Shown here: one piece after another, positions 6,468 through 57,681 of the stretch
How the letters are laid out: each line of letters opens with the position of its first letter
Numbering within the stretch: position 1 is the stretch's first letter
From: Pelovirga sp.
Lineage (GTDB): Bacteria; Desulfobacterota; Desulfuromonadia; Desulfuromonadales; Geopsychrobacteraceae
Assembly (NCBI GenBank): GCA_046482365.1
Contig: JAWOFG010000182.1
Location: 49,878-113,877, forward strand
DNA length: 64,000 bases
Direction: 5' to 3'
The notes under the pieces: generated by a model
Told to the model about the DNA's origin: nothing
Database searches by the model: none
What the model saw: only the letters and a program-made list of their open reading frames with translations
Translations under genes and position numbers: made by a program

Positions 6468-7598
6468 ATGTTTGGGAGTCTTGAATGGTCTACTTTGCAG
6501 CAGTTCTGGTGGCTCATCGTTTCTGTAGTGGGCTCGTTGTTTGTTCTTTTAACCTTTGTCCAGGGGGGGCAGACCCTGATTCTGACGGTACCAAAGTCTG
6601 AGACGGAAAAATCCCTGATGATTAATTCCCTTGGGCGCAAATGGGAGTTGACGTTTACCACTCTGGTTTTGTTCGGTGGTGCTTTTTATGCATCTTTCCC
6701 GCTTTTTTACGCGACCAGTTTTGGCGGCGCCTTCTGGGTCTGGCTGGCGATCCTGTTCACGTTCATTGTTCAGGCGGTCAGTTACGAATACCGGCGTAAA
6801 CCAAACAACTTTCTTGGTCAGAAAACCTTTGAAATGTTCTTGGTGATCAACGGCTCGATCGGGATTTTGCTTATCGGTGCCGCGATCGGGACCTTTTTCA
6901 CCGGGTCCAATTTTATTATCAATGATTACAATCTGTCCCGCTGGACCCATCCGCTGCGCGGGCTGGAAGCAGCATTCAGCTTATTCAACTTGAGTTTCGG
7001 CCTTTTCCTGGTGTTTCTGGCACGGACCCTGGGTGCCCTCTATCTGGCCAACAACCTTCAGCAGGAGCAACTGGTGCCGCGTTTAAAGGTCTCATCTTTT
7101 AATAACCTGCTCTGTGCGCTGCCATTTCTGCTCTATGTGTTGATCCGGCTGGTGACCATGGAGGGTTTTGCCGTTGATCCGCAGAGCGGCGAGGTGTTTA
7201 TGCAGTCCGGCAAGTACCTCAATAACCTCCTTGAATTTCCTGTTACCTTAGTCCTGTTGCTGGCCGGACTGGTGCTGGTCGTGGCTGGGGTAGCACTTAA
7301 CCGTTTTACTGCGTCGGTGCGCGGTATCTGGCCGGCTGGTCTGGGTACGGTAATGACCTGTCTAGCCGTGTTTTTTCTGGCGGGGTACAACAATACCGCA
7401 TTTTACCCATCAAAATATGACCTGGGCAGCAGTCTGACCATCTACAACGCTTCCAGCAGCCACTATACCCTGACGATGATGTCTTATGTCTCCTTATTGG
7501 TTCCTCTTGTGCTGGCTTACATCGCCTGGATATGGCGCCAGATGGATACGGAGAAGTTGACCGACGAAGAAATTGCTGCAGATAAAAAGAGTTATTAA
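6468..7598 (+). CDS. cydB: Cytochrome bd ubiquinol oxidase subunit II
   Basis: A 376-aa polytopic membrane protein immediately after cydA, with CydB-like length and hydrophobicity. Confidence 0.95.
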   Translation: MFGSLEWSTLQQFWWLIVSVVGSLFVLLTFVQGGQTLILTVPKSETEKSLMINSLGRKWELTFTTLVLFGGAFYASFPLFYATSFGGAFWVWLAILFTFIVQAVSYEYRRKPNNFLGQKTFEMFLVINGSIGILLIGAAIGTFFTGSNFIINDYNLSRWTHPLRGLEAAFSLFNLSFGLFLVFLARTLGALYLANNLQQEQLVPRLKVSSFNNLLCALPFLLYVLIRLVTMEGFAVDPQSGEVFMQSGKYLNNLLEFPVTLVLLLAGLVLVVAGVALNRFTASVRGIWPAGLGTVMTCLAVFFLAGYNNTAFYPSKYDLGSSLTIYNASSSHYTLTMMSYVSLLVPLVLAYIAWIWRQMDTEKLTDEEIAADKKSY

Positions 7599-11486: not shown

Positions 11487-11566
11487 GCTTCCGATAAGAG
11501 CAAACCCGGGGCGATCCGGGGACGCAAAGCCACGGGTCCCACGCGGACAGCCGGGTTGCCGAAGAG
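11487..11566 (+). promoter_or_regulatory. GEMM-I class cyclic-dinucleotide riboswitch aptamer (A at the Vc2 G20-equivalent position)
   Basis: The sequence AAGAGCAAACCCGGG-GCGA-UCCGGGGACGCAAAGCCACGGGUCC...GGACAGCCGGGUUGCCGAAG contains the GCAAAC element, a P2 helix capped by a GNRA tetraloop, the invariant GGGACGCAAAGCC core and the AGC-GGGUU-CC 3-prime element of c-di-GMP-I riboswitches. Confidence 0.8.
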
Positions 11567-11673: not shown

Positions 11674-13383
11674 ATGGGCACAGCTCAGGATGACAGGTTC
11701 CAGCGCCGGATCAGACTGCAGAAGCTTCGTTGCCGTGCCCTGGAGTTCTGGTCAGGTGTTGGTTTACGTCCCCGCCTCATTGGTGCTTTTTTGCTGGTTT
11801 CCTTGATCCCTTTAGTGATCCTCTTTTTTGCCCAGTATCAAATTTCCAAACGTAACGTTCTTGACCAGATCGAATCAAACCTGATGCAAATTGCCGAGGG
11901 GCAACACCGGCGTATCGATATGGAGTTGCAGCGGCTTTTCGAACAACTGGAACTGGTAAGCAGTCGAACCCAGCTGCGTATCAGTTTAAAGGCTTATAAC
12001 CGGACTGGAGAGCATCACCACCTGGAGCTTTTGAACAGGATCATGGGCGACGCCCTTGCGTCAATGGAGCATTTTGTCGGTATCTGGATTCGTAATCCTG
12101 ATGATGATCTGGTGACGGGAGTTTTTAATGAGGATCCGGAGGCTCTCTGTTCTCTGACTCCTCCAGTTCAATCAGCAGAGTCGAAGCAACTGCAGCTGCA
12201 CTGGTTAGCCGAAGATAGCCCCTGTGTCTGGGTGAATGGACCCCTTTATCTTGAAGATCAAAACCTCGGCACTATTTATCTGCTGGTAACCATGACCGAC
12301 ATCGTTGCCGTGCTCGAAGATTTCCGTTGTGAACAATCCGGAATGGAAAATGTTTTGTTGCTGCCTGCTGATAATCAAGACATAAAAATTCTGGGGACCC
12401 TGTGTCCGGTCCAAGGGAAAGCTAATCAGGCTTTTTATCGTTTGTTAGAGTCGTCTGATTTCTATAGTACCTTGATTGCCGGTGGGGAAAATAGGTCACC
12501 CGTTTACCACCATGGCCACATCGCAGTAGTTCGACAACTCAGTTATGGCTTCGGTGATGTTCTGGTTCATGCCCATCCCGCTTCGTTGGATGGTGTTTTC
12601 TGGGGCCAGATGCGCTATCTGTTGGGGATGACCTTGTTCGCTCTGGTTTTGGTCATTGCGATGGCCCTTGCCTTGACGCGCATGATCGCCCGTCCACTAC
12701 GGGAACTGACCAGAGCGACTTCGATATTGCATGTTGGTCAGACTGACGTTCATATCAAAGAGCAGTTCTGGGGTGAATTTGCTGAACTGACACAGTCGTT
12801 CAACCGTGCCATGCGGGCGCTTTCGCGCCGCACTCGCGAGTTGAATCGGGAGGTTGAAGCGCGCCGGCGATCGCAGGAAAAACTGGTTGATCTGGCCAAT
12901 ACCGATACCCTGACCGGTTTGATTAATCGCCGGTATTTTATGGAAAAATTTCGTGAGGTGCTCAGCTTGCCATTCAGGGATCGCCAACCTGCAGCGCTTT
13001 TGTATATTGATCTGGACGATTTCAAACCCATCAATGACAGCATGGGACACGAAGCGGGCGACCTGGTGCTGCAGGTGGTGGCCGGAAGGATTCGTCACTT
13101 GTTGCGCGAAGGGGATCTCGCCGCGCGTATGGGTGGTGATGAGTTTGTGTTGTTGTTGATGGCGGATGGTTTGCATCCCCTCGATCCGGAGGTGATTGTG
13201 AAGCGGGTAGAAGAGCAACTAACCATGCCGATGACGATCAAGAATCAGGTCATTAGCGTCGGCTGCAGCATCGGTACTGTCAGGCTCTCACCCGGAGATG
13301 ATCCCCATGTGGTGCTCAACCGGGCAGATCAGGAAATGTACCGGGTCAAGCGCTCACACCGTATCAACAAGACTGAAAATTGA
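11674..13383 (+). CDS. Membrane sensor diguanylate cyclase (periplasmic sensor domain - HAMP - GGDEF)
   Basis: Two TM segments flank a sensor region of about 280 aa, followed by a HAMP linker and a GGDEF domain (FKPINDSMGHEAGD, RMGGDEFVLLL, RxxD I-site REGD). The start is ambiguous between GTG 11644 and ATG 11674; the latter follows GGGAG. Confidence 0.9.
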   Translation: MGTAQDDRFQRRIRLQKLRCRALEFWSGVGLRPRLIGAFLLVSLIPLVILFFAQYQISKRNVLDQIESNLMQIAEGQHRRIDMELQRLFEQLELVSSRTQLRISLKAYNRTGEHHHLELLNRIMGDALASMEHFVGIWIRNPDDDLVTGVFNEDPEALCSLTPPVQSAESKQLQLHWLAEDSPCVWVNGPLYLEDQNLGTIYLLVTMTDIVAVLEDFRCEQSGMENVLLLPADNQDIKILGTLCPVQGKANQAFYRLLESSDFYSTLIAGGENRSPVYHHGHIAVVRQLSYGFGDVLVHAHPASLDGVFWGQMRYLLGMTLFALVLVIAMALALTRMIARPLRELTRATSILHVGQTDVHIKEQFWGEFAELTQSFNRAMRALSRRTRELNREVEARRRSQEKLVDLANTDTLTGLINRRYFMEKFREVLSLPFRDRQPAALLYIDLDDFKPINDSMGHEAGDLVLQVVAGRIRHLLREGDLAARMGGDEFVLLLMADGLHPLDPEVIVKRVEEQLTMPMTIKNQVISVGCSIGTVRLSPGDDPHVVLNRADQEMYRVKRSHRINKTEN

Positions 13384-30200: not shown

Positions 30201-31577
30201 ATGATGGTGGAACAAGCTAAAATACTGGTTGTTGACGATGAGCTTTTTTTTCGTCATCTCTACCGTGATCTCCTCGAAGATGCCGGTTATGCTGTGGTGA
30301 TCTGTGCTAATGGTGATGAAGCTGTCAGGTTACTGGAAGCAGAGCCCTTTGACCTGGTCTTGAGTGATGTGGTCATGCCCGGTCGCAGTGGTATCGACGT
30401 GCTCCGTTTCGCCAAGGGGTTGCCGTCACCTCCTGAAGTGGTGATGGTGACTGGTTACGCCAGTCTTGACTCTGCAATCGAATCTCTTAAAAACGGTGCC
30501 CGCGACTATCTGGTAAAACCTTTTAATCCGGAAGAGCTCAAACATCTGATCGCAACCTGTCTGGAGCAGCGGCGGCTACTGGCTGAAAATGCCCATCTTA
30601 AACGCCAGATCAACCTGTTTCAGACTGGCCAGACGCTTTCTTCCCTGATCGACCTGGAGTGCCTGATTCCTCAATCCCTTGAAGCCTTGATGCGTAAACT
30701 AGGTTCCCAATCGGGGTTCTCCTTTACCCTGGCAGACGATCAGGCAACCTATCTGACGGGTCTGAAAAAGATCCACGCAGGACATGCCGAGCAGTTAATC
30801 GAACTGCTGCTGCCGGAATTTTTTCAGGCGGCCGGTGTTGTTCAGCCATCAGGAGAATGTCTGGAGGGGTTGCGTAGCTTGAACAAACGACCTGAGCAGA
30901 TCTGGATGCTGCCATTGCGTGACGGAGATTTGTTGAAGGGTGGCATTCTGATCAGTGATGCAGTTTGTAACGATACCGATTTTTCTCCGGCTGACCTGCG
31001 CTACCTGTGCGATCAGATTGCCCTGGGGTTTGCCAACGCCTCGCGTTATCGTAATGCCCAGCAACTGATGTATTCCGATGACCTGACCGGTCTTTATAAT
31101 CATCGTTATCTTCAGATCGCTCTTAATCAGGAGATGATGCGCTCGCAGCGTTATGGTCTGAAATTTTCTGTTTTGTTTATGGATCTGGATCGTTTCAAGG
31201 AGATCAATGATCAGCACGGGCATCTAGCCGGCAGTGCGGCTCTGCAGGAAGTGGGGCGGTTGATGCGTGGTTGTGTTCGTGATGTCGACACCCTGTTTCG
31301 CTTTGGGGGCGATGAATTTGCTGCCCTGTTGGTTGAGACCGATCGACGCGCAGCACGAGTTGTTGCCGAGCGGATTCGCGGGCTGATTGAAAAGCATGTG
31401 TTTCTGGAAAAAGACAATCAGCCATCGCAGGTTACCGTCTCTATCGGCATTGCGACCTTCCCCGATGATGCCACCAACCAGGAACGCCTTCTCGGCCTCG
31501 CTGATCAGGCCATGTACGCCGGCAAGGAATCGCGTAACAGCATCTGCAGTGCCGTCGATCTGGTAGATACTCGTTAA
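30201..31577 (+). CDS. Response regulator receiver - linker/GAF-like - GGDEF cyclase; candidate Hypr GGDEF (GacA-like)
   Basis: The REC domain has an intact acceptor Asp (LVLSDVVMPGRSG). The GGDEF domain has FGGDEF and an RxxD I-site. The base-recognition motif reads FKEINDQHGHLAGS, with Ser345 (AGT 31233-31235) where canonical cyclases have Asp. Confidence 0.85.
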   Translation: MMVEQAKILVVDDELFFRHLYRDLLEDAGYAVVICANGDEAVRLLEAEPFDLVLSDVVMPGRSGIDVLRFAKGLPSPPEVVMVTGYASLDSAIESLKNGARDYLVKPFNPEELKHLIATCLEQRRLLAENAHLKRQINLFQTGQTLSSLIDLECLIPQSLEALMRKLGSQSGFSFTLADDQATYLTGLKKIHAGHAEQLIELLLPEFFQAAGVVQPSGECLEGLRSLNKRPEQIWMLPLRDGDLLKGGILISDAVCNDTDFSPADLRYLCDQIALGFANASRYRNAQQLMYSDDLTGLYNHRYLQIALNQEMMRSQRYGLKFSVLFMDLDRFKEINDQHGHLAGSAALQEVGRLMRGCVRDVDTLFRFGGDEFAALLVETDRRAARVVAERIRGLIEKHVFLEKDNQPSQVTVSIGIATFPDDATNQERLLGLADQAMYAGKESRNSICSAVDLVDTR

Positions 31578-49860: not shown

Positions 49861-52053
49861 CTAACTGTCGGTCTGAGGGACACCGTTCTTCAGTAAATTA
49901 ATGAATTGGTGATCTGGAATCGGGCGACTGAATAAATAGCCCTGGAAAAGATTACATCCATTCTGTTTGAGAAAGTCGAGTTCAGGGCGGGTCTCTACGC
50001 CTTCGGCAATGACTTTAAGATAAAGATGTTCCGCCATGGCGATAATGGTGGCAACAATGGCGGCATCATTGGCATCGGTTTCAATGTCACGGACGAAGGA
50101 CTGATCAATTTTGAGAATGTCCAGAGGCATTTTTTTCAGATAGGTCAAGGAAGAATAGCCGGTCCCAAAATCGTCAATGGAAAGTTGTAATCCCAGTTTT
50201 TTTAGCCCCTGCATTTTTTCAATCGTGTCGATAATATTGTCAATCACCAGGCCTTCCGTCAGTTCAAAGCAGACCATGGTCGGATCGACCCCGGTTTCAT
50301 CCAGGATTGACTGAACCTGGGCGACAAACTCAGGTTGGCGGAACTGGCGGGGGCTGACGTTAATGGCAAGATGACTGAGCCCCAGCCCTTGATCGTTCCA
50401 CTTCTTTAAATGCCGGCAGGCTGTTCTCAACACCCATTCACCAATCGATAGAATCAAGCCACTGGCTTCGGCAATGGGGATAAAGGTGCCGGGAGAAATA
50501 AATCCCTTGGTGGGGTGGATCCAGCGAATAAGCGCTTCGGCACCAAGAATATTACCATGATAATCGACTTGCGGTTGAAAATAGAGAGACAATTCATCGC
50601 GTTCGATGGCATGGCGCAGTTCTTTTTCCAGGGCGAGACGATAGTCAGCCGCCGCCTGCATGCTTGGCAGAAAGAAGCGAATGGTATCGCGACCATCATC
50701 CTTGGCCCGGTACATGGCGGTATCAGCATAGCGCAGAATATCACTGCCGGTTTCGTAGCCGCCGTCAACTGACGGGAACATGGCAACCCCTATACTCGGG
50801 GTGATGTGCAAAATATTGTCATGAATCATGTAGGGTTCGGTCAGGCGTTCCTTGATGCTTTCCGCTTTGTGTTGGGCCGCCGCCGCTGCAGTTCCTGCTT
50901 CGGTGCCCAGGTCAGCTAAGAGGACGACGAATTCATCACCTCCCAGCCGAGAAATTGTATCCTCGCTGCGCATGTCAGTCGCCAGTCGTTCAGCTACCTG
51001 CTTGAGGAGATCATCGCCGATCGGATGGCCGAGGGAGTCATTGATGTTTTTAAAACGATCCAGATCTAAAAAGAGCATGGCACCATAGTGGCCATAGCGT
51101 CTGGCACGAGAGAGGTTCTGCTCAAGACGATTGATCAACAGGCGACGATTCGGCAGTTCCGTCAAGGCATCATAATAAGCCAGGTATTCAATCCGTGCCT
51201 CGGCCTCTTTGCGTTCGGTGATGTCGCGCAACGTAGCACAAATTTTATCAGCATTTTCGCGCTCGCCACTCTGATAACTGGCGTTGAGGGAGCAGGGAAT
51301 GTCGTGCTGGTCTTTGTCGCGCAGGTGGATCTCGAAATCACGAATCTGGCTAGTTTGATTGAGCAGATCGAATAACTCGTCGCGCTCCTGCGCCACAGGG
51401 AAAAGTCCCTCGACTTTAGTACCGATTAATTCATCACGTTTGAACGCTGAAATTGCAGAGATGGACGGGCTGACTTCCAGGATCACGCCGTTGCCGGCGA
51501 ATTCGAAGTAGACATCCTGCAAATTTTCAAAAATGGAGCGGTATGTTTCTTCACTCTTGCGTAGCTTGAAATGCGATTCATTGAGGTCGTTGATAGCTTT
51601 CTGCAGAGCAGCGGTGCGGCGTGTGACTTCTTCTTCAAGATGTTCCTGGTAAGCGCGATTTTCAATGATCAGGCGCGCACGCTCAAGTTCCTGATTGATG
51701 GCATGCAACAAAACGGACATGTCCTGAATCGGTTTAAGCAGATAGTTCCATGCCCCGCGGTGGATTGCCTCAATGGCATCACCGATAATCCCGGTTCCGG
51801 AAACGACAACGATTGGGGTGTCTGGAGATTCAGCCCTGATCGTCTGCAGTACCTCAAGTCCATCCATCTCCGGCATTCGCAGATCGCACAGTACCAGATC
51901 CGGTTTATCGCGACGAAAAACCTCCAGCCCCTCGCGCCCGTTTTTTGCTTCAACCACGTCAAAATCATGATCTTCAAGAAACAGCTGGAAGCTGTTGCGG
52001 ATCTGGTCTTCATCGTCAATGGTGAGAATTAGCGGATTTTTTTGACGCCCCAT
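49861..52053 (-). CDS. Response regulator receiver - PAS - GGDEF - EAL protein
   Basis: REC domain (LVLCDLRMPEMDG), a PAS region, a GGDEF domain (NDSLGHPIGD, LGGDEF, RxxD) and an EAL domain (EALIRW, DDFGTGYSS, KIDQSF). Confidence 0.9.
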   Translation of the reverse strand: MGRQKNPLILTIDDEDQIRNSFQLFLEDHDFDVVEAKNGREGLEVFRRDKPDLVLCDLRMPEMDGLEVLQTIRAESPDTPIVVVSGTGIIGDAIEAIHRGAWNYLLKPIQDMSVLLHAINQELERARLIIENRAYQEHLEEEVTRRTAALQKAINDLNESHFKLRKSEETYRSIFENLQDVYFEFAGNGVILEVSPSISAISAFKRDELIGTKVEGLFPVAQERDELFDLLNQTSQIRDFEIHLRDKDQHDIPCSLNASYQSGERENADKICATLRDITERKEAEARIEYLAYYDALTELPNRRLLINRLEQNLSRARRYGHYGAMLFLDLDRFKNINDSLGHPIGDDLLKQVAERLATDMRSEDTISRLGGDEFVVLLADLGTEAGTAAAAAQHKAESIKERLTEPYMIHDNILHITPSIGVAMFPSVDGGYETGSDILRYADTAMYRAKDDGRDTIRFFLPSMQAAADYRLALEKELRHAIERDELSLYFQPQVDYHGNILGAEALIRWIHPTKGFISPGTFIPIAEASGLILSIGEWVLRTACRHLKKWNDQGLGLSHLAINVSPRQFRQPEFVAQVQSILDETGVDPTMVCFELTEGLVIDNIIDTIEKMQGLKKLGLQLSIDDFGTGYSSLTYLKKMPLDILKIDQSFVRDIETDANDAAIVATIIAMAEHLYLKVIAEGVETRPELDFLKQNGCNLFQGYLFSRPIPDHQFINLLKNGVPQTDS

Positions 52054-52165: not shown

Positions 52166-52576
52166 TCACAGGTCACCGGTCAGGTTCTGCAAGATAAAGA
52201 GCTTGGGATTGATGGTGGCTATTGCCTCAATCAGTTCAAGTAATTGATCTGAATCAAGGTTTTCTTCCGTGTCCGTGTCTTGAAAATAGCGGTAACCTTT
52301 GGGCAGTTCGCTGTAGTTTCCTCCGAATAACAGGGAGGCGTCAACCAGATCATTGACTCTGCCGGTGGCTTCCCAGGGGTCACGATAGTTGTACTGGCGA
52401 GCGGTAATCTGTAAGCCCAGCTTGTTGGGGAACAGCGCCTTGACCTCAAAGGAGAAATCGCGCGGCGAGCCGTAGTGAGCACTACGCCCGTCACGTCCTT
52501 TGACCCGTGCTCCTGCTGCCGAGAGCATGGCGCTCACGCTGTCCACTGACATGGGGGTTGGTTGGGTCGTTGTCAT
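52166..52576 (-). CDS. Hypothetical 136-aa protein, third gene of the AAA/vWA operon
   Basis: Its start overlaps the stop of the upstream vWA gene (ATGA). I recognise no family motif, signal peptide or TM segment. The C-terminus is acidic. Confidence 0.6.
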   Translation of the reverse strand: MTTTQPTPMSVDSVSAMLSAAGARVKGRDGRSAHYGSPRDFSFEVKALFPNKLGLQITARQYNYRDPWEATGRVNDLVDASLLFGGNYSELPKGYRYFQDTDTEENLDSDQLLELIEAIATINPKLFILQNLTGDL

Positions 52577-53766
52577 GATGCCTCCAGGATCTTGTCAAGT
52601 CGCAGTTCGAGACCCCATGTTACCGGCTTTTTCCCCTCTGGCGATAGTACCCACAGGGTCGGAATATCTGATGCTAGTGGGGCGGGGCCAAAACCATCGG
52701 TCAGGTAGATAATCGCAGCCGGGCGGGGTTGCATGTGGCGGGCATAGTCGAAAATCGGACGCAGGTCGGTAAAGCCGCCACCACGAAAGACTTCGATCAC
52801 CGCAGGGTCGCCGCTAAAGGTCGAAATTTTCTGAATCCGGCTGCCGGCATAGAGGACGGTGATGCGGCTTTGTCGTGCCTGGGCAATCCTCATGAGTTCT
52901 CCGGCAAAGGTTTCACGCAGAGGCTGGGTATCGGTGGAATCACTGACATCGATACCGACCACCAGGTTCAGATATTGCTTTTTGCGAATTCCCGGCGTCG
53001 TCTGATCAAAACGCCGATGGGCCCGTTTCCAGGTAGCGGTTTTGCCGACCCGCCCGGCGTTGCCGATAAACTGGCGCAGAATCTGCTGCCAGGGGATGGT
53101 GGGGGGGGTGAGGTAGGGGTGAATCAATGCCCGTAGATCGCCTGCACCTTCGTCACCACTTTTGTGCCAGGCCGATTGTACCATCTGGCGTACCACTTGT
53201 TCACTCAAGGCGTCCGGCGTGCGTTCGGCGTCCTGCCAGTGTTGGTGATCATCCAGCGGTTGCAGCTGCAACGCCTCAAGGGTAGCTGTTGTCCTGTCGG
53301 CTGCCGGTTCGCCGGAGATTTCAGCGGAGTTGTCACCATCACCAGCGCCGAGTTGATCCCCCAGCCGTGGTATCAGCAGCAGCTGGTCGTAATATTCTTC
53401 AGCAGCGAGACCTGCCCCCAGCTTCAGGCGTTCAGGGCGCGGCGCTTCGGGGGGCATGTTGTCAATACCGGGGTTAATGGCAAGGTCGCAGGCCAGATCC
53501 CAGAGCCTGGGGTGGCGATCTCTGCGCCGGCACGGGTGCAGGTGAAGGATATGTTTGACCAGATGTTCGAGCAGTGCCTGTTGTTCATCACCGGAAAAAC
53601 AGGAGAAATGCTGTGATGAAACCATCAGGGTCGGCAAGGCATCAATCAGGGTCACAGCCACCGCCTTGCGTCCCTGGTAGGGACGGCGCCGAAACTGCAG
53701 GAGAAAATGGCCGTAAAAGGGGCGCTGTTTCAGCAACCTGACAATCGTATCTTCAAGCTGGCGCAT
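52573..53766 (-). CDS. DUF2201-type protein: metallopeptidase-like N-domain plus vWA domain
   Basis: The N-terminus RPFYGHFLLQF...DRHPRLWDLACDLAINP resembles the DUF2201_N fold. The C-terminal vWA domain has the MIDAS motifs GIDVSDS and IIYLTDG. It starts 5 nt after the AAA gene stop. Confidence 0.8.
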   Translation of the reverse strand: MRQLEDTIVRLLKQRPFYGHFLLQFRRRPYQGRKAVAVTLIDALPTLMVSSQHFSCFSGDEQQALLEHLVKHILHLHPCRRRDRHPRLWDLACDLAINPGIDNMPPEAPRPERLKLGAGLAAEEYYDQLLLIPRLGDQLGAGDGDNSAEISGEPAADRTTATLEALQLQPLDDHQHWQDAERTPDALSEQVVRQMVQSAWHKSGDEGAGDLRALIHPYLTPPTIPWQQILRQFIGNAGRVGKTATWKRAHRRFDQTTPGIRKKQYLNLVVGIDVSDSTDTQPLRETFAGELMRIAQARQSRITVLYAGSRIQKISTFSGDPAVIEVFRGGGFTDLRPIFDYARHMQPRPAAIIYLTDGFGPAPLASDIPTLWVLSPEGKKPVTWGLELRLDKILEAS

Positions 53767-53771
53767 TGGCT

Positions 53772-54833
53772 TTACAGCGCATCGTGGCTGATTTTACGGA
53801 TCGTATCCAGTATCGCGGCGTCGTACTTGTCCTGGCATAGAATCATGGCGATGGCCGGGATCCGCAACAAACTCTTGACCGTGGCAAATCGCATATCGCG
53901 TGGCAGAATATCAATATAGGCCACCAGATGACCCTGTTCGGTTTCATTGAGGGGGGTCTGCTGTTGCAGCAGGGAGGTCAATTCATTGATGGTCGCCGCC
54001 TGGATATCGTCACGTTGTTTTTCCGCCTGCTCGGCCACCTCGGGCCAGCGTTGCAGAATGTCCTGAGCACTCAAGGGGCGCAGGCGTTGTTCATGGCACC
54101 ACTGCAGAAAGGCCACGGCAGCTTCCTTGCCGATGACACCGCTGTAGACCTCCATTTCCAGCCCTTGCGCGAAGCGGCAATGACGGCGCAAGATGCTGAC
54201 CATTTCCCAGGCGCGTTCAGAAGGCTCGACGTTCATATCGAAGCTGGCATTATTCAGGGACAGCAGGTGCTGATGAGAACTAATAAAGTGACGTACCGAT
54301 GGCTCGAAGTCAGCTTGTTGCGCATAGTGAGACCAGCAGCTGGCATCTGTTTCAACCTGAATGACCACCATGCGATCCAGCAGGGCCCGATCAAGCGGCG
54401 TAACCTGGTAACTGCCGTCGGGCGGGTTGATGGCAACCACGACCCGATGCTGCGGTGCAAGCTTGTGGGTGTGCAATGAGCGTTGTTGTCCCTGGGATGG
54501 TGGCTCAACAAACTGAAAAATCGCCTGCAGGGTGTCTTCCTGTTGGGCGCGATTGAGTTCATCACAGTGAATAACCGTTGGCTCAGCATTGTCGGCCGGC
54601 CACCAGGATGGACGGGACCAGTGCATGGTCTCGTCTACGCGATAGGGAATACCGACCAGGTCACCAACCTCCATCTGTCCCAGACGTAAAGGAATATAAC
54701 TGCGCTTGATCTCACGACAGACCTGAATAATGCCGGCGGTTTTGCCGACCCCCCGGTGACCCACCACGCAAGGCGTCAGATCGGTCCTCATCAGGATTTC
54801 TTTGAGCACAATCTTCATCTGTTCGATATTCAT
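53772..54833 (-). CDS. AAA+ ATPase (AAA_5/MoxR-like) with helical C-terminal extension
   Basis: Walker A GHRGVGKT and Walker B VIHCDELNR, with a single AAA module followed by about 180 aa of extension. Confidence 0.85.
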   Translation of the reverse strand: MNIEQMKIVLKEILMRTDLTPCVVGHRGVGKTAGIIQVCREIKRSYIPLRLGQMEVGDLVGIPYRVDETMHWSRPSWWPADNAEPTVIHCDELNRAQQEDTLQAIFQFVEPPSQGQQRSLHTHKLAPQHRVVVAINPPDGSYQVTPLDRALLDRMVVIQVETDASCWSHYAQQADFEPSVRHFISSHQHLLSLNNASFDMNVEPSERAWEMVSILRRHCRFAQGLEMEVYSGVIGKEAAVAFLQWCHEQRLRPLSAQDILQRWPEVAEQAEKQRDDIQAATINELTSLLQQQTPLNETEQGHLVAYIDILPRDMRFATVKSLLRIPAIAMILCQDKYDAAILDTIRKISHDAL

Positions 54834-54985
54834 GGTTTTCTCGTTTTGGCTTGGCTGGAACGGTCAGTCCCTCCATGGTTGCAGAATAAGAAGGGTAAAC
54901 TGTCTCTTAATATGCCGGAAGCTACAGGAGAAAGTCAAAAGGAGGTTGGACAGGAGCAGATCAGTGATCAGGGGTTTACCGATAA

Positions 54986-56221
54986 TCAGCTGGGAAGTGC
55001 GCTGAGGACTTCCCGTGTTTTGTGTTTAAGCAAGTCAATGACTTCCTCATTAAGGTGGAAGCGCTCAAAGCAGCTTTCGTGCAAATGAGTCTTGTAGGTT
55101 TCCTGGCGGGTACAAAAATTGAACTGACAGGCAAGAATATTACCTGCATAGGCAGCAGCGCTGACCTCCGGCTCAATCGGTGTGGCGCGAAGGTGATGAT
55201 GTGAGCGGATGGCTTCGACCAGGAAAGGCGGCAGGCTCCACCATTGTGCCAGCATAGCGCCGATTTCAGCATGATCTGTTGCGAAAATGCTGCATTCAGC
55301 TTGTAGTGAAGAACAGTGATTTGCAGCGGCAATTTCAATGGCATGCTGGTATTGTTTTGGCAGGTAGGTAGCCAGCAACAGTTTACCCATATCATGAAGA
55401 AGCCCGGCAATAAAAGCGCGATCCTGCATGCCGACATTGCTGCTGTAGGTCAGTTTGATCAGTAAACGGGCAATTGTTGCGCTGGCAATCGAATGTCTTT
55501 TAAAGCGGTTGATATCAAACCCGGGAACTTTATGGGTATCGGTTTTGACCGTGCGATAAACCGACTCCGACAATACCAGATTCTCGACGATGTCCGTACC
55601 CAGGACAATAATTGCTTTTTTAATGGAGTCAACGAGAAAGCGCTGACCAAAGAGGGCAGAATTGCCCCAATGCAGCAGGGTGGTGGACAGGCTGACATCC
55701 TGACTGATGGCCTCCGCCATTCCTTCAATATCGATGTCATCATCGCTGATACAGGCGCGCACCTGACTATAGGTTTCCGGCAGGGTTGGAAGCAGGGGCA
55801 TGGTATTGATCAGCTTTTGCAACTCCAGACCGTACTTGCGCTGATATTGTGCCTGCCGCAGGGCGCTGCGGAGGATTTCCTTAAGTTCGATATCAATCCA
55901 GGGTTTGGGAATAATCTGCTGGGTATACCCTTGTGCCAAAGCTTGCAGGACCGTGTTGTGGCGGGGATGATCTGTCAGGAACAGACGAATCATTGTTGGG
56001 TAGAGCACGCGGATCTCACTGAGCAGGCTGATGCCGTCCATTTCCTGCATGACCGCCGCGCTGACGACCAGCTCAACGGGGTCGTCTTTCAGGTGCTGCA
56101 GCGCCTTACCAGCGCTTGCAACGAAATGGCATTCCCACTCCTCGTTTTGCAGCAATGTTTGCAGTGCTGTCAGGACCTTGGGATCTTCATCAATAAAAAG
56201 GATTTTTGGCGTGTCATTCAT
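54986..56221 (-). CDS. Receiver-like domain plus HDOD domain signalling protein
   Basis: The N-terminal REC fold (ILFIDEDPKV ... TDH ... KPW) is followed by an HDOD domain (GLLHDMGKLLL). The phospho-acceptor position reads Ala. Confidence 0.85.
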   Translation of the reverse strand: MNDTPKILFIDEDPKVLTALQTLLQNEEWECHFVASAGKALQHLKDDPVELVVSAAVMQEMDGISLLSEIRVLYPTMIRLFLTDHPRHNTVLQALAQGYTQQIIPKPWIDIELKEILRSALRQAQYQRKYGLELQKLINTMPLLPTLPETYSQVRACISDDDIDIEGMAEAISQDVSLSTTLLHWGNSALFGQRFLVDSIKKAIIVLGTDIVENLVLSESVYRTVKTDTHKVPGFDINRFKRHSIASATIARLLIKLTYSSNVGMQDRAFIAGLLHDMGKLLLATYLPKQYQHAIEIAAANHCSSLQAECSIFATDHAEIGAMLAQWWSLPPFLVEAIRSHHHLRATPIEPEVSAAAYAGNILACQFNFCTRQETYKTHLHESCFERFHLNEEVIDLLKHKTREVLSALPS

Positions 56222-56304: not shown

Positions 56305-57681
56305 TTAATCCTTGTTTATGAAAAAATCCTGACCTGGTTGGGAATTTTTGGCCCCTCGTTCCTGCAACTGCAACAATTCACAATTTTCAAAGCAGACCTG
56401 GCGAAAACCTTCAGAGATCCGCTCATCAATAGCGGCACTCTTCCAGAAAAGAAGAGCAGCCTGCCGGGCATTTACAAGTTGGGCCTCTGCTTCTTTGCGT
56501 AGTGAAGGTGGAGTGAACAGACGTGCCGGAATTTCACCGGCAAGGGGTTCATAGATGGTTGGACGCATCCCGTAGGCCGGAGCCAGAAGGAAATTATCTT
56601 TACCATGGGGCAAAAAAGAAATGTTGCCAAAATGCTGGTTAGCGTTACCGATCATATCACTGAACAGGGCCAGCCAGTGAAGCTTTCCGGCCTCACTAAG
56701 AGGAATGATCCCCTGCTTTTGCAGGCGGGTTGCCGCTGACACCCAGTCATCGCAGGGTTCCTGAATGCGGGTGTGCAGAGCGCGCAGGGAGATGGCCGGC
56801 AGACGCCCGAAAAGGCCGCGGCGATCAAAACGCTTTATGCACAAAAAGGTCTGATTGCCGCTGATTACCAGACGTGAACGCGCGGCATTCAGTCCGGCGA
56901 GGCGGATGGCTTCAAGTGCCAGATGTTCACACACGAGCAGGTCAGCATAGCGTCTGGCCTCCTTGCTGTCTGCCGCCGGTGAAAATTTGACCAGCATCCA
57001 ACAGGGGGCACCGCGTTCGTTGAGGCAAACAGAAAACTTGGGTTGTTCTCCGCTAAGTTGCAGTGGAGTGGTTTCTCGGGCCAGGGTTTTAAGTGCCAAT
57101 TGCGGGTATTCATGGGTCTGGCTGCCAGGCTCGATCAATTCGGGTGGATTGCGTACCAGTTCAAAGTAGCGGGCAAGGGATTCTTCACCCAGGATCAGGT
57201 TGCCGGGTCGATCCTCACCACAACGACTGGTGGCAATCAGCATATCTTCCTCGGTCCAGTCAGTGACTCGCGGTGAGAGTTTAAGATAGTCGCCGTAGCG
57301 CAGAGCAAAGGTACGAGCACAATAGCCGTTAATCAGCAAGTCCTGGATTTGCCACGGTAATTGATGAGAGATTTCACCACTACAGGCAATCGATTGCCAC
57401 CAGTACTGCCCTCCTTGTAAGGGGGTCAGTTGACCGTAAGGGTGGACGTCACCTTTGGCGTCAATGCTGTAAACCGGCAGACGGTTAAACTCCTGTCCTG
57501 GTTTATTAGGCAGGCCATAGCAAGTAGCTCGCCCTTTTCCCATGACAACAATTTCATTCTGCATGGTGTTGATCAGTCGTGACAGGGTCGGTTGGCTGAT
57601 GCCGAGTTCCCGGACCAGTTCGCGTGACGTCATCACCCGATCAGCCAGCAGCTGTAGCAATTGTTGTCGGTTGGTTTTCAT
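56305..57681 (-). CDS. HipA-like protein with N-terminal HTH domain (YjjJ/HipH-type architecture)
   Basis: The HTH is TSRELVRELGISQPTLSRLINTM. The HipA N- and C-domains are collinear with HipA (MLVKF, LVCEHLALE, IGNANQHFGNISFL, LAPAYG). Confidence 0.8.
   Translation of the reverse strand: MKTNRQQLLQLLADRVMTSRELVRELGISQPTLSRLINTMQNEIVVMGKGRATCYGLPNKPGQEFNRLPVYSIDAKGDVHPYGQLTPLQGGQYWWQSIACSGEISHQLPWQIQDLLINGYCARTFALRYGDYLKLSPRVTDWTEEDMLIATSRCGEDRPGNLILGEESLARYFELVRNPPELIEPGSQTHEYPQLALKTLARETTPLQLSGEQPKFSVCLNERGAPCWMLVKFSPAADSKEARRYADLLVCEHLALEAIRLAGLNAARSRLVISGNQTFLCIKRFDRRGLFGRLPAISLRALHTRIQEPCDDWVSAATRLQKQGIIPLSEAGKLHWLALFSDMIGNANQHFGNISFLPHGKDNFLLAPAYGMRPTIYEPLAGEIPARLFTPPSLRKEAEAQLVNARQAALLFWKSAAIDERISEGFRQVCFENCELLQLQERGAKNSQPGQDFFINKD

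Follow-up and report, generated by a model that had tools for sequence, protein, structure and literature searches.

What does a closely packed set of three genes do that joins a MoxR-type AAA+ ATPase and a DUF2201 protein to a small acidic protein? The set in question, referred to below as the triad, lies on the minus strand of the 64,000-nucleotide (nt) stretch of Pelovirga sp. DNA analyzed here, which we call the window. By homology to known families, we classify the triad as a MoxR-DUF2201 module that has been domesticated, has degenerated catalytically and has a third subunit restricted to its lineage. Our favoured reading, which we hold with moderate confidence, is that the small protein belongs to an ATP-driven holdase or switch, as its dedicated client or as a regulatory subunit, and is not a protease substrate. 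A first-pass annotation made from the sequence had described three packed minus-strand genes with a 5-nt gap, an ATGA overlap and a 152-nt leader, a layout that the open reading frames (ORFs) and the sequence confirm: genes 1 and 2 are separated by a 5-nt spacer (53767-53771), and genes 2 and 3 overlap by the 4 nt of an ATGA stop/start (52573-52576).

53772..54833, minus strand: gene 1, MoxR-type AAA+ ATPase, 353 amino acids (aa); from ORF, Pfam and PHROG
52573..53766, minus strand: gene 2, DUF2201_N + von Willebrand factor A (vWA) protein, 397 aa; from ORF, Pfam and PHROG
52166..52576, minus strand: gene 3, 136-aa acidic orphan protein; from ORF
54834..54985, minus strand: 152-nt intergenic region between gene 1 and a REC-HDOD gene

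The DUF2201 protein has lost the zincin general base

Gene 2 contains both DUF2201 Pfam domains in N-to-C order, PF13203 (DUF2201_N; E=4.7e-25, 89.2 bits versus a cutoff of 23.2) and PF09967 (DUF2201/vWA; E=6.3e-15, 55.8 bits versus a cutoff of 26.4), which places it in the family by homology, and it matches phrog_1314 with E=2e-46. The protein has a zincin-like domain at its N-terminus (residues ~1-135) and a vWA domain at its C-terminus (268-390); between them lie, in this order, a disordered linker (137-161), a helical region and a beta-hairpin. Its orthologues are uniform, spanning 357-440 aa with the same two domains. An AlphaFold2 model of the single chain, with a predicted local distance difference test (pLDDT) score of 78.5 and a predicted template modelling (pTM) score of 0.56, showed a well-defined N-terminal domain. 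No close relative was found in the PDB by sequence or fold; the Foldseek matches of the full model were to generic Rossmann, USP and vWA folds, all with E>0.02, and were rejected as a basis for assignment.

Zincins use the Glu of their HExxH motif as general base. The corresponding segment of gene 2 is as follows.

53536..53568, minus strand: degenerate zincin motif E67-H68-L69-V70-K71-H72-I73-L74-H75-L76-H77, from alignment with HExxH relatives

Aligned relatives from a Sphaerotilus plasmid, a Pontibacillus plasmid, Synechocystis pSYSA and Xanthomonas phage PB119 keep the canonical zincin motif (HEVWH, HELLH, HELDH) together with the third His. Gene 2 retains the three His ligands and has Leu69 in place of the catalytic Glu, changing HExxH to H[LV]xKH, and the catalytic motif of the DUF2201 family is therefore absent from it. 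The domain had been called metallopeptidase-like, a description that stands with respect to zincin-like homology and the His ligands and falls with respect to catalysis, as the absence of the catalytic Glu had gone unnoticed. This absence extends across the clade: among 120 gene 2 orthologues (56-100% identical; the motif was unreadable in one), the general-base position is occupied by Leu in 102, Val in 15, and Gln and Met in one each, with Glu in 0 of 119, and Geobacter-type loci carry A, C, G, V or L. By comparison, Glu is found at this position in 119 of 120 diverse DUF2201 proteins that were collected by profile search as an outgroup. The sole Glu-less outgroup protein, P0361 (423 aa, on a 1.4-kb metagenome contig), reads HLAMH, and its peptidase domain may have been inactivated independently, outside Desulfuromonadia. 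Among the clade orthologues, neither the three His ligands nor the Glu67 before them vary, and an extra His, His75, is conserved. As the general base varies among hydrophobic or small residues while the metal ligands stay, the domain appears to be kept for binding rather than catalysis, and in this clade it is most likely a non-cleaving metal- and peptide-binding domain.

The same residues could be read differently, with the zincin domain still an active protease that uses a non-canonical base (e.g. Glu67 or His75) and the small protein as its substrate, pro-protein or inhibitor. Strict conservation of the three His, of the Glu in 'LEH' and of His75 implies that the site is under selection. 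In addition, pairs of a zincin and a small precursor, involved in peptide processing, occur beside vWA-MoxR systems (Kaur et al. 2020, PMC7159879), and proteolytic processing has been proposed for the phage versions (PMC7824862). However, variability at the general-base position (L/V/A/C/G/M/Q) is the pattern of a non-catalytic site, by geometry His68 would lie between Glu67 and the canonical Glu position on the helix, and the small protein is conserved over its full length, unlike the rapidly diverging precursors of Kaur et al. We therefore regard an active protease as decidedly unlikely.

The ATPase, the MIDAS and a candidate finger are conserved

Gene 1 had been annotated as an AAA_5/MoxR-like ATPase, in agreement with its Pfam AAA_5 match and intact Walker motifs. 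The AAA_5 core (residues ~22-155) scores 24.7 bits, barely over the threshold of 22, and the Walker A (GHRGVGKT) and Walker B (VIHCDELN) motifs are invariant, together with their flanking segments, among 55 gene 1 orthologues. Walker motifs, an AAA_5 score above the gathering threshold and pairing with a vWA gene place the protein in the MoxR class, and it aligns with the MoxR-annotated partners of DUF2201 genes on plasmids and phages; a sequence search of the PDB gave nothing meaningful. The core is followed by a tail of ~180 aa. Because the phrog_1297 'ATPase' profile matches residues 1-325 (E=9e-47), this C-terminal tail is a feature of the family and no lineage-specific addition.

In gene 2, two further features map to the C-terminal part of the protein.

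[quoted passage not shown]
52945..53049, minus strand: long beta-hairpin, residues ~240-274, directly before vWA strand beta-1, from the AlphaFold2 model

The MIDAS is intact (D273-x-S275-x-S277, T333 and D357), so that the earlier description of gene 2 as a DUF2201_N domain fused to a vWA domain with an intact MIDAS is borne out by Pfam and motif reading alike. All 120 clade orthologues carry DxSxS, GGGxT and [LIV][ST]DG, and every one of the 120 outgroup proteins has a DxSxS-like motif. The hairpin consists of strands E240-248 and E257-274 with a low-confidence tip, and a basic motif, T-W-K-R-x-H-R-R-F ... P-G-x-R-K, is found there in 118 of 120 clade orthologues; the RR pair of the region is invariant in a six-sequence alignment that spans the family. 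By analogy, the basic hairpin 240-274 is a candidate for a pore-inserting 'finger'.

Gene 3 encodes a conserved orphan protein restricted to the class

The product of gene 3 is acidic and cytoplasmic, with an isoelectric point of 4.8, no Cys and one non-conserved His. The first-pass annotation recognised no family in it, and a wider search leads to the same answer: there was no match in Pfam, NCBIfam, PADLOC or PHROGs, a sequence search of the PDB yielded nothing meaningful, and Foldseek found no match to its model in the PDB (best E=0.25, template modelling (TM) score 0.33). Relatives number 1260 in a 90%-clustered database, of which the best 120 are all 128-141 aa long and none has a Pfam domain. 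Thirty diverse members share 36 invariant columns and a mean column identity of 68%, and the C-terminus, L-T-G-D-L, is near-invariant. When compared to 1.84 billion 50%-identity representatives, the gene 3 profile retrieved a single full-length 50%-identity cluster, the remaining matches being fragments and one compositional match, P0252 (632 aa), an acidic-repeat surface protein that was rejected as a relative. HMMER thus detected no remote homologues in this set, and the family appears to have been invented in Desulfuromonadia. Between the same genome pairs across the class, identity is 57-89% for gene 3, 55-92% for the ATPase and 49-94% for DUF2201, and in Geobacter-type loci it is 58-63%, 60-66% and 49-57%, respectively; conservation of gene 3 is thus similar to that of the ATPase and above that of DUF2201.

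The AlphaFold2 model of the small protein (pLDDT 81, pTM 0.76) is an alpha/beta fold of one helix, five strands and two helices. Of the 36 invariant residues, 11 fall in two low-confidence internal segments (31-40 and 61-70; Fisher p=0.004), and most of these 11 are Arg, Tyr, Trp or Pro, a pattern in the model that is typical of loops that become ordered upon binding a partner or ligand. A comparison of the model with BFVD gave weak matches (E 2.6e-3 to 3e-2, TM 0.4-0.65) to uncharacterised phage proteins of ~100-190 aa, among them Streptomyces phage EGole A0A482JGW5, a Mycobacterium phage DrLupo protein and Bacillus phage G gp643, which we treat as a lead and not as evidence. Assignment of the protein as PilZ-like or as another known receptor of cyclic dimeric GMP (c-di-GMP) was considered and is not supported, as Pfam gives no match and the 50 best fold matches listed do not include PilZ.

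The small gene is linked to DUF2201 across Desulfuromonadia

A scan of one genome per species revealed gene 3 relatives in 185 species genomes. All 80 of these species that were listed carry the names of Desulfuromonadales or Geobacterales lineages or a broader label, and the lineages include Pelovirga, Geopsychrobacteraceae, Malonomonas, Desulfuromonas, Trichloromonas, Geoalkalibacter, Geobacter, Geotalea, Geomonas, Oryzomonas and Geomobilimonas. Linkage was counted by tblastn, and 70 of 80 fetched loci had enough flanking sequence to be judged; clustering of flanking ORFs was discarded because it picked antisense ORFs in GC-rich DNA. The loci were distributed as follows.

54 of 70 loci: AAA, DUF2201 and small gene contiguous
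2 of 70 loci: all three present, with an insertion of ~3 kb between DUF2201 and the small gene
13 of 70 loci: DUF2201 and small gene, with no AAA gene within ~5.5 kb upstream (mostly Geobacter, Oryzomonas and Geomobilimonas types)
1 of 70 loci: small gene alone

Of the 70 informative loci, 69 thus have DUF2201 adjacent to or near the small gene, and 56 have the AAA gene. The 54 contiguous loci, all from other species, have the same three genes in the same order, so that the arrangement described in the window is not a product of chance. Sampling in the reverse direction gave the same picture, as 4 of 4 divergent DUF2201 orthologues on long contigs lie in an AAA(353)-DUF2201-small(134-137) arrangement. 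The suspected association of the small gene with the AAA-DUF2201 pair therefore holds within Desulfuromonadia.

The closest relative of gene 2 is the Pelovirga terrestris orthologue (94% identical), and an eight-gene block (SH3, HipA-like, REC-HDOD, AAA, DUF2201, small, REC-PAS-GGDEF-EAL and peptidyl-prolyl isomerase (PPIase)) is collinear between the window and a P. terrestris contig (L003), with 84-95% protein identity. The triad has the same neighbourhood in a 4.7-Mb genome and in Malonomonas rubra, where it is followed by GGDEF-EAL, PPIase, MntP, agmatine deiminase-like (PAD_porph), CN_hydrolase and MetK genes. The triad is vertically inherited and chromosomal, and it behaves as part of the core genome rather than as a mobile island. 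The surrounding region had been singled out as the least housekeeping-like stretch of the window, a view that its position in a stable syntenic block near PPIase, MntP, agmatine deiminase and MetK contradicts.

The loci that depart from the common arrangement raise the question of whether the small gene is functionally independent of AAA-DUF2201, with adjacency reflecting inherited synteny. In L067 (Geobacter sp. L1geo) the small gene (6986-7390) stands alone, with no AAA or DUF2201 gene within +/-7 kb, and in L032, L037 and L058 it is split from DUF2201 by opposite-strand genes. The insertions between DUF2201 and the small gene are unrelated opposite-strand genes, esterase-like or, in L058, a MutY-like glycosylase. 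Given such separated and solitary loci, independent transcription of the small gene is possible, and it might act alone. It is also retained in the 13 loci without an adjacent ATPase, and genes as unrelated as those for PPIase, MntP and MetK are syntenic here as well. Against independence, the linkage to DUF2201 outlasts a complete turnover of the other neighbours between Geobacteraceae and the Desulfuromonadaceae group, many lineages have a start/stop overlap or a very short gap, a sign of translational coupling, and the phyletic range of the small gene coincides with the Glu-less DUF2201 clade. We consider functional independence very unlikely. In the AAA-less loci, which include those of Geobacter sp. 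AOG1, G. hydrogenophilus, Oryzomonas japonica and Geomobilimonas luticola, DUF2201 keeps its MIDAS in 13 of 13 cases and the basic hairpin motif in 11 of 13, which suggests that an ATPase partner may be encoded elsewhere in these genomes. As a side observation, the solitary small gene of L067 lies between cob(I)alamin adenosyltransferase-like and B12-binding-domain genes on one side and an MsrA-like gene on the other, as judged from translations only.

The HExxH-intact relatives reside on phages, plasmids and islands

Outside the clade, DUF2201 proteins at <32% identity were found in 96 plasmid and 215 phage records, the phages including N4-like Schitoviridae, Vibrio phages of ~190 kb, cyanophage S-TIM5 and a Thermus phage. 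A MoxR-like ATPase gene lies immediately or closely upstream of DUF2201 in all contexts inspected except two. In one exception, a Pseudomonas mendocina island (L087 3369-5664), genes of the IS21 insertion sequence (IS) family (Mu-transpos_C_2 + IstB) lie directly upstream of a stand-alone DUF2201 gene, which may reflect insertional loss of the ATPase; a 370-aa protein without a Pfam domain and then a WYL protein are encoded downstream. In the other, Vibrio phage phiKT1024, no ATPase is annotated within 2.4 kb upstream. The gene that follows DUF2201 differs from case to case (dCTP deaminase, dUTPase or assorted small ORFs), and a search of 830 ORF segments from 11 outgroup loci with the gene 3 profile gave 0 matches (positive controls E<1e-64). 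The ORF downstream of the phage and plasmid DUF2201 genes was accordingly rejected as a remote homologue of gene 3. The triad is therefore a feature of Desulfuromonadia and not of DUF2201 genes in general, as phage, plasmid and island pairs elsewhere lack the small gene.

In N4-like phages the pair is found among early nucleotide-metabolism genes, outside the structural module. Iyer et al. 2021 described a MoxR/metallopeptidase-vWA pair in group 2.2 jumbo phages and predicted that it acts as a virion-assembly chaperone with proteolytic processing (PMC7824862). This comparative-genomic prediction was all that the searchable literature offered, and no experimental function for the DUF2201 branch was found there, as judged on titles and abstracts, in keeping with what the annotation had supposed. 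In many records (H26-H50, e.g. NC_019514.1 and PV565044.1) and in phrog_1314, the phage DUF2201 gene is labelled 'HNH endonuclease', which looks like a propagated mis-annotation.

Both large proteins of the triad are homologous to these phage and mobile-element pairs over their full length (E ~1e-46 to the PHROG profiles), and gene order, tight coupling, the MIDAS motif and, in the six-sequence alignment, the RR pair of the hairpin region are shared. Unlike the triad, the outgroup keeps HExxH (119 of 120), is mobile or viral and has no conserved third gene, whereas in the clade represented in the window the Glu is gone, the genes are chromosomal and inherited vertically, and the 136-aa partner is present.

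On plasmids and islands, the outgroup pair is found with toxin-antitoxin genes, DUF262, WYL, transposases and IS elements. On two unrelated plasmids, Sphaerotilus pSna507_unt13 (L083 5848-7644) and Synechocystis pSYSA (L085 7527-9188), the pair is followed within ~2.3 kb by a DUF262 (GmrSD-like) gene, and the pSYSA pair is also flanked by toxin-antitoxin genes; the HExxH-intact outgroup may thus be associated with defence islands. These surroundings are what would favour a role of the triad itself in anti-phage defence or conflict, with a vWA-MoxR core that senses invasion and deploys the third component as effector. Ternary conflict systems built on a vWA-MoxR core do exist (VMAP, iSTAND and FtsH types; Kaur, Burroughs, Iyer, Aravind 2020, PMC7159879), and the triad resembles them in having three components and such a core; inactive peptidase domains are common in these systems (PMC7159879). 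The likeness ends there. The ternary systems are mobile, enriched in multicellular or aggregating prokaryotes, and bear variable effector domains behind the vWA domain, in architectures that differ among close relatives; the triad is syntenic and confined to Desulfuromonadia. Its third component, 136 aa long, consists of one domain, matches neither VMAP nor iSTAND and has no recognisable effector domain, and it is near-invariant, not diversifying, forming one 50% cluster with ~60% identity across the class; a third component that varies, as proposed for a conflict or signalling core, is not supported by these data. The vWA domain reaches the C-terminus of gene 2 (268-390 of 397), with no effector fusion and no architectural diversification. 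The defence screen that had been called for came back empty, as no family of PADLOC-DB v2 matched any of the three proteins at E<=0.01. Finally, the triad is present in one copy in the window, occupies a stable syntenic position and has ordinary G+C, and the outgroup family, with its 215 phage records, is at least as common in phages themselves. Defence is in our view highly improbable.

The triad most resembles NorQD-type couples in its predicted mode of action

In NorQ/NorD, the vWA protein inserts a finger into the pore of the hexameric ATPase ring, acidic residues of the target are bound by the MIDAS ion, and the N-terminal domain of the adaptor provides specificity (PMC9976466, PMC13036017). 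The triad shares with NorQ/NorD, CbbQ/CbbO and RavA/ViaA an AAA_5/MoxR gene beside a gene for a protein with a C-terminal vWA domain and an intact DxSxS-T-D MIDAS, and its predicted beta-hairpin adjoins the vWA domain like the finger of NorD. It differs from them in that PDB searches detected no sequence similarity, there is no linked client enzyme gene, it has a dedicated small third protein, and its N-terminal domain is a degenerate zincin and not of the NorD/CbbO type. By analogy, and without specific similarity, the triad would work most like NorQD-type couples.

This likeness could be taken further, with the triad as a maturation chaperone of the NorQD/CbbQO type that remodels or metallates a client enzyme encoded elsewhere and whose 136-aa protein is an assembly factor or specificity adaptor. 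The characterised MoxR-vWA pairs NorQD, CbbQO and RavA-ViaA all work in this manner (PMC9976466, PMC13036017), the ATPase, MIDAS and finger motifs of the triad are intact, its core-genome behaviour and high conservation would suit a housekeeping role, and the retained His triad could bind metal. However, chaperones of this type usually have their client in the same gene cluster, and no client enzyme gene, and in particular no candidate metalloenzyme, was found conserved beside the triad across subclades in the locus neighbourhoods, which vary by subclade; a client may be located elsewhere. The small protein has neither Cys nor a conserved His, unlike a metallochaperone, and it co-appears with the Glu loss in this clade, which suggests that the two changes are connected. 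A maturation chaperone is, on this balance, unlikely, though far from negligible.

A model for the triad

Under our favoured reading of the small protein, the triad would descend from a two-gene MoxR-zincin-vWA module of the type that phages, plasmids and mobile islands commonly carry. This module would have been fixed as a chromosomal gene set in the ancestor of Desulfuromonadia, with the zincin Glu lost and the three His kept, and a new 136-aa acidic protein would have become its obligate neighbour. Loss of the general base and gain of a tightly linked, conserved acidic protein in the same clade make a dedicated partner the most economical role for the small protein. The machine itself is presumably still functional, because Walker A/B are invariant, the MIDAS is intact and the finger motif is conserved.

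We infer the following order of physical interactions. The ATPase would form a hexamer, the pore of which would be entered by the basic hairpin preceding the vWA domain, as in NorQ/NorD. The MIDAS, the dead peptidase cleft, or both would then hold the small protein, for which candidate contacts are the invariant Arg/aromatic loops 28-40 and 59-73, the acidic patch D102/E104 and the C-terminal LTGDL. Finally, ATP hydrolysis would remodel or release the small protein.

Several observations weigh against this scheme. The loss of the HExxH Glu is no strict proof of lost catalysis, given the invariant Glu67 and the conserved His75, and the inter-domain confidence of the gene 2 model is only moderate, as its pTM indicates. 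To these are added the solitary, split and ATPase-less loci described above.

Operon signals and neighbouring genes

A Shine-Dalgarno sequence precedes gene 3, and the genes on either side of the triad encode proteins with signalling domains.

52581..52585, minus strand: GGAGG Shine-Dalgarno of gene 3, within the 3' end of gene 2 and 5 nt before the gene 3 ATG, by direct reading
49861..52053, minus strand: REC-PAS-GGDEF-EAL gene, 112 nt downstream of the triad, from Pfam
54986..56221, minus strand: pseudo-receiver REC-HDOD gene, upstream of the triad, from Pfam Response_reg and HDOD
56305..57681, minus strand: gene for a helix-turn-helix (HTH) + HipA_C protein, nearest to the YjjJ/HipA family at 362 bits, under the NCBIfam cutoff of 401

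Within the 152-nt region upstream of gene 1, a consensus scan found a sigma-70-like match, TTGACT-18-CATATT (54938-54909), which is a pattern match and carries no evidence of function. A pattern scan found no minus-strand terminator-like site inside the operon. The G+C of the operon stretch is 0.55, ordinary for the window, and none of the three genes has a paralogue elsewhere in these 64 kb, where each is single copy.

The neighbours had been described as a pseudo-receiver HDOD protein, a HipA-like HTH protein and a REC-PAS-GGDEF-EAL protein, and Pfam, NCBIfam and the sequence agree with this. The REC-HDOD protein has Ala55 at the position of the receiver phospho-acceptor Asp (...ELVVSAAVMQEMDG...), and the REC domain of the neighbouring GGDEF-EAL protein retains its phospho-acceptor Asp (DLVLCDLRMPEMDG). 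HipA kinases carry a D-x-H-x-K-N catalytic loop. At the presumed position of this loop, the HTH-HipA_C protein reads 'GNANQHFGN', and it is probably inactive. The HipA-like gene was seen in Pelovirga-type loci and in L029 only.

A possible connection to c-di-GMP signalling

Genes related to c-di-GMP were found within 2.5 kb of the triad in five configurations: REC-PAS-GGDEF-EAL downstream in ~26 loci (the Pelovirga, Geopsychrobacteraceae, Malonomonas and Desulfuromonas group) and in none of the Geobacteraceae-type loci, REC-HDOD upstream in 8 loci only, a divergent dCache-GGDEF upstream in 6 loci, a same-strand GGDEF upstream in L091, and a convergent PilZ downstream in 5 loci. These recurrences are suggestive, not robust, of a link between the triad and c-di-GMP signalling in part of the clade. 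Counting against such a link are ~45 Geobacteraceae-type loci that have no c-di-GMP-related neighbour, and an enrichment that rests on few events and is only marginally above background: by the same method, the background frequency of c-di-GMP genes is 0.03 per 2.5 kb in far flanks and ~0.09 in the window, which contains two further GGDEF genes.

The most far-reaching version of our proposal would have a phage-derived, ATP-driven protease turned, in the ancestor of Geobacter-type bacteria, into a non-proteolytic, ATP-resettable catch-and-release switch that feeds c-di-GMP signalling and has as its sole client a protein of novel fold that arose in the same lineage. We consider it quite unlikely in this full form. 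If it were true, the small protein would, for instance, be a new nucleotide-second-messenger effector or a regulator of the adjacent GGDEF-EAL, HDOD or PilZ proteins, and the triad would be an unrecognised regulatory module specific to electroactive Desulfuromonadia.

Elsewhere in the window, positions 11490-11564 (plus strand) match the c-di-GMP-I-GGC riboswitch aptamer of Rfam with 64.4 bits against a gathering score of 59 (E=6.6e-13), and GGDEF matches were obtained by tblastn at 12847-13362 (plus strand), ~1.3 kb past the riboswitch, and at 31053-31550 (plus strand).

Significance

The triad overturns no current view. The MoxR-DUF2201 pair to which it belongs is nevertheless a large family, with hundreds of phage and plasmid records and two PHROG families, and the Desulfuromonadia version offers a clean entry point to it, being single-copy where examined, chromosomal and strongly conserved, and having a candidate dedicated partner. 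Its carriers include cultured genera, Geobacter, Geotalea and Geoalkalibacter among them, and some of these are probably genetically tractable. A role for the small protein would give a so far unannotated family, conserved across no fewer than 185 species, its first annotation. Loss of the Glu throughout the clade, together with a class-restricted partner that has no fold match in the PDB, makes the triad a testable case of a mobile-element enzyme turned non-catalytic machine.

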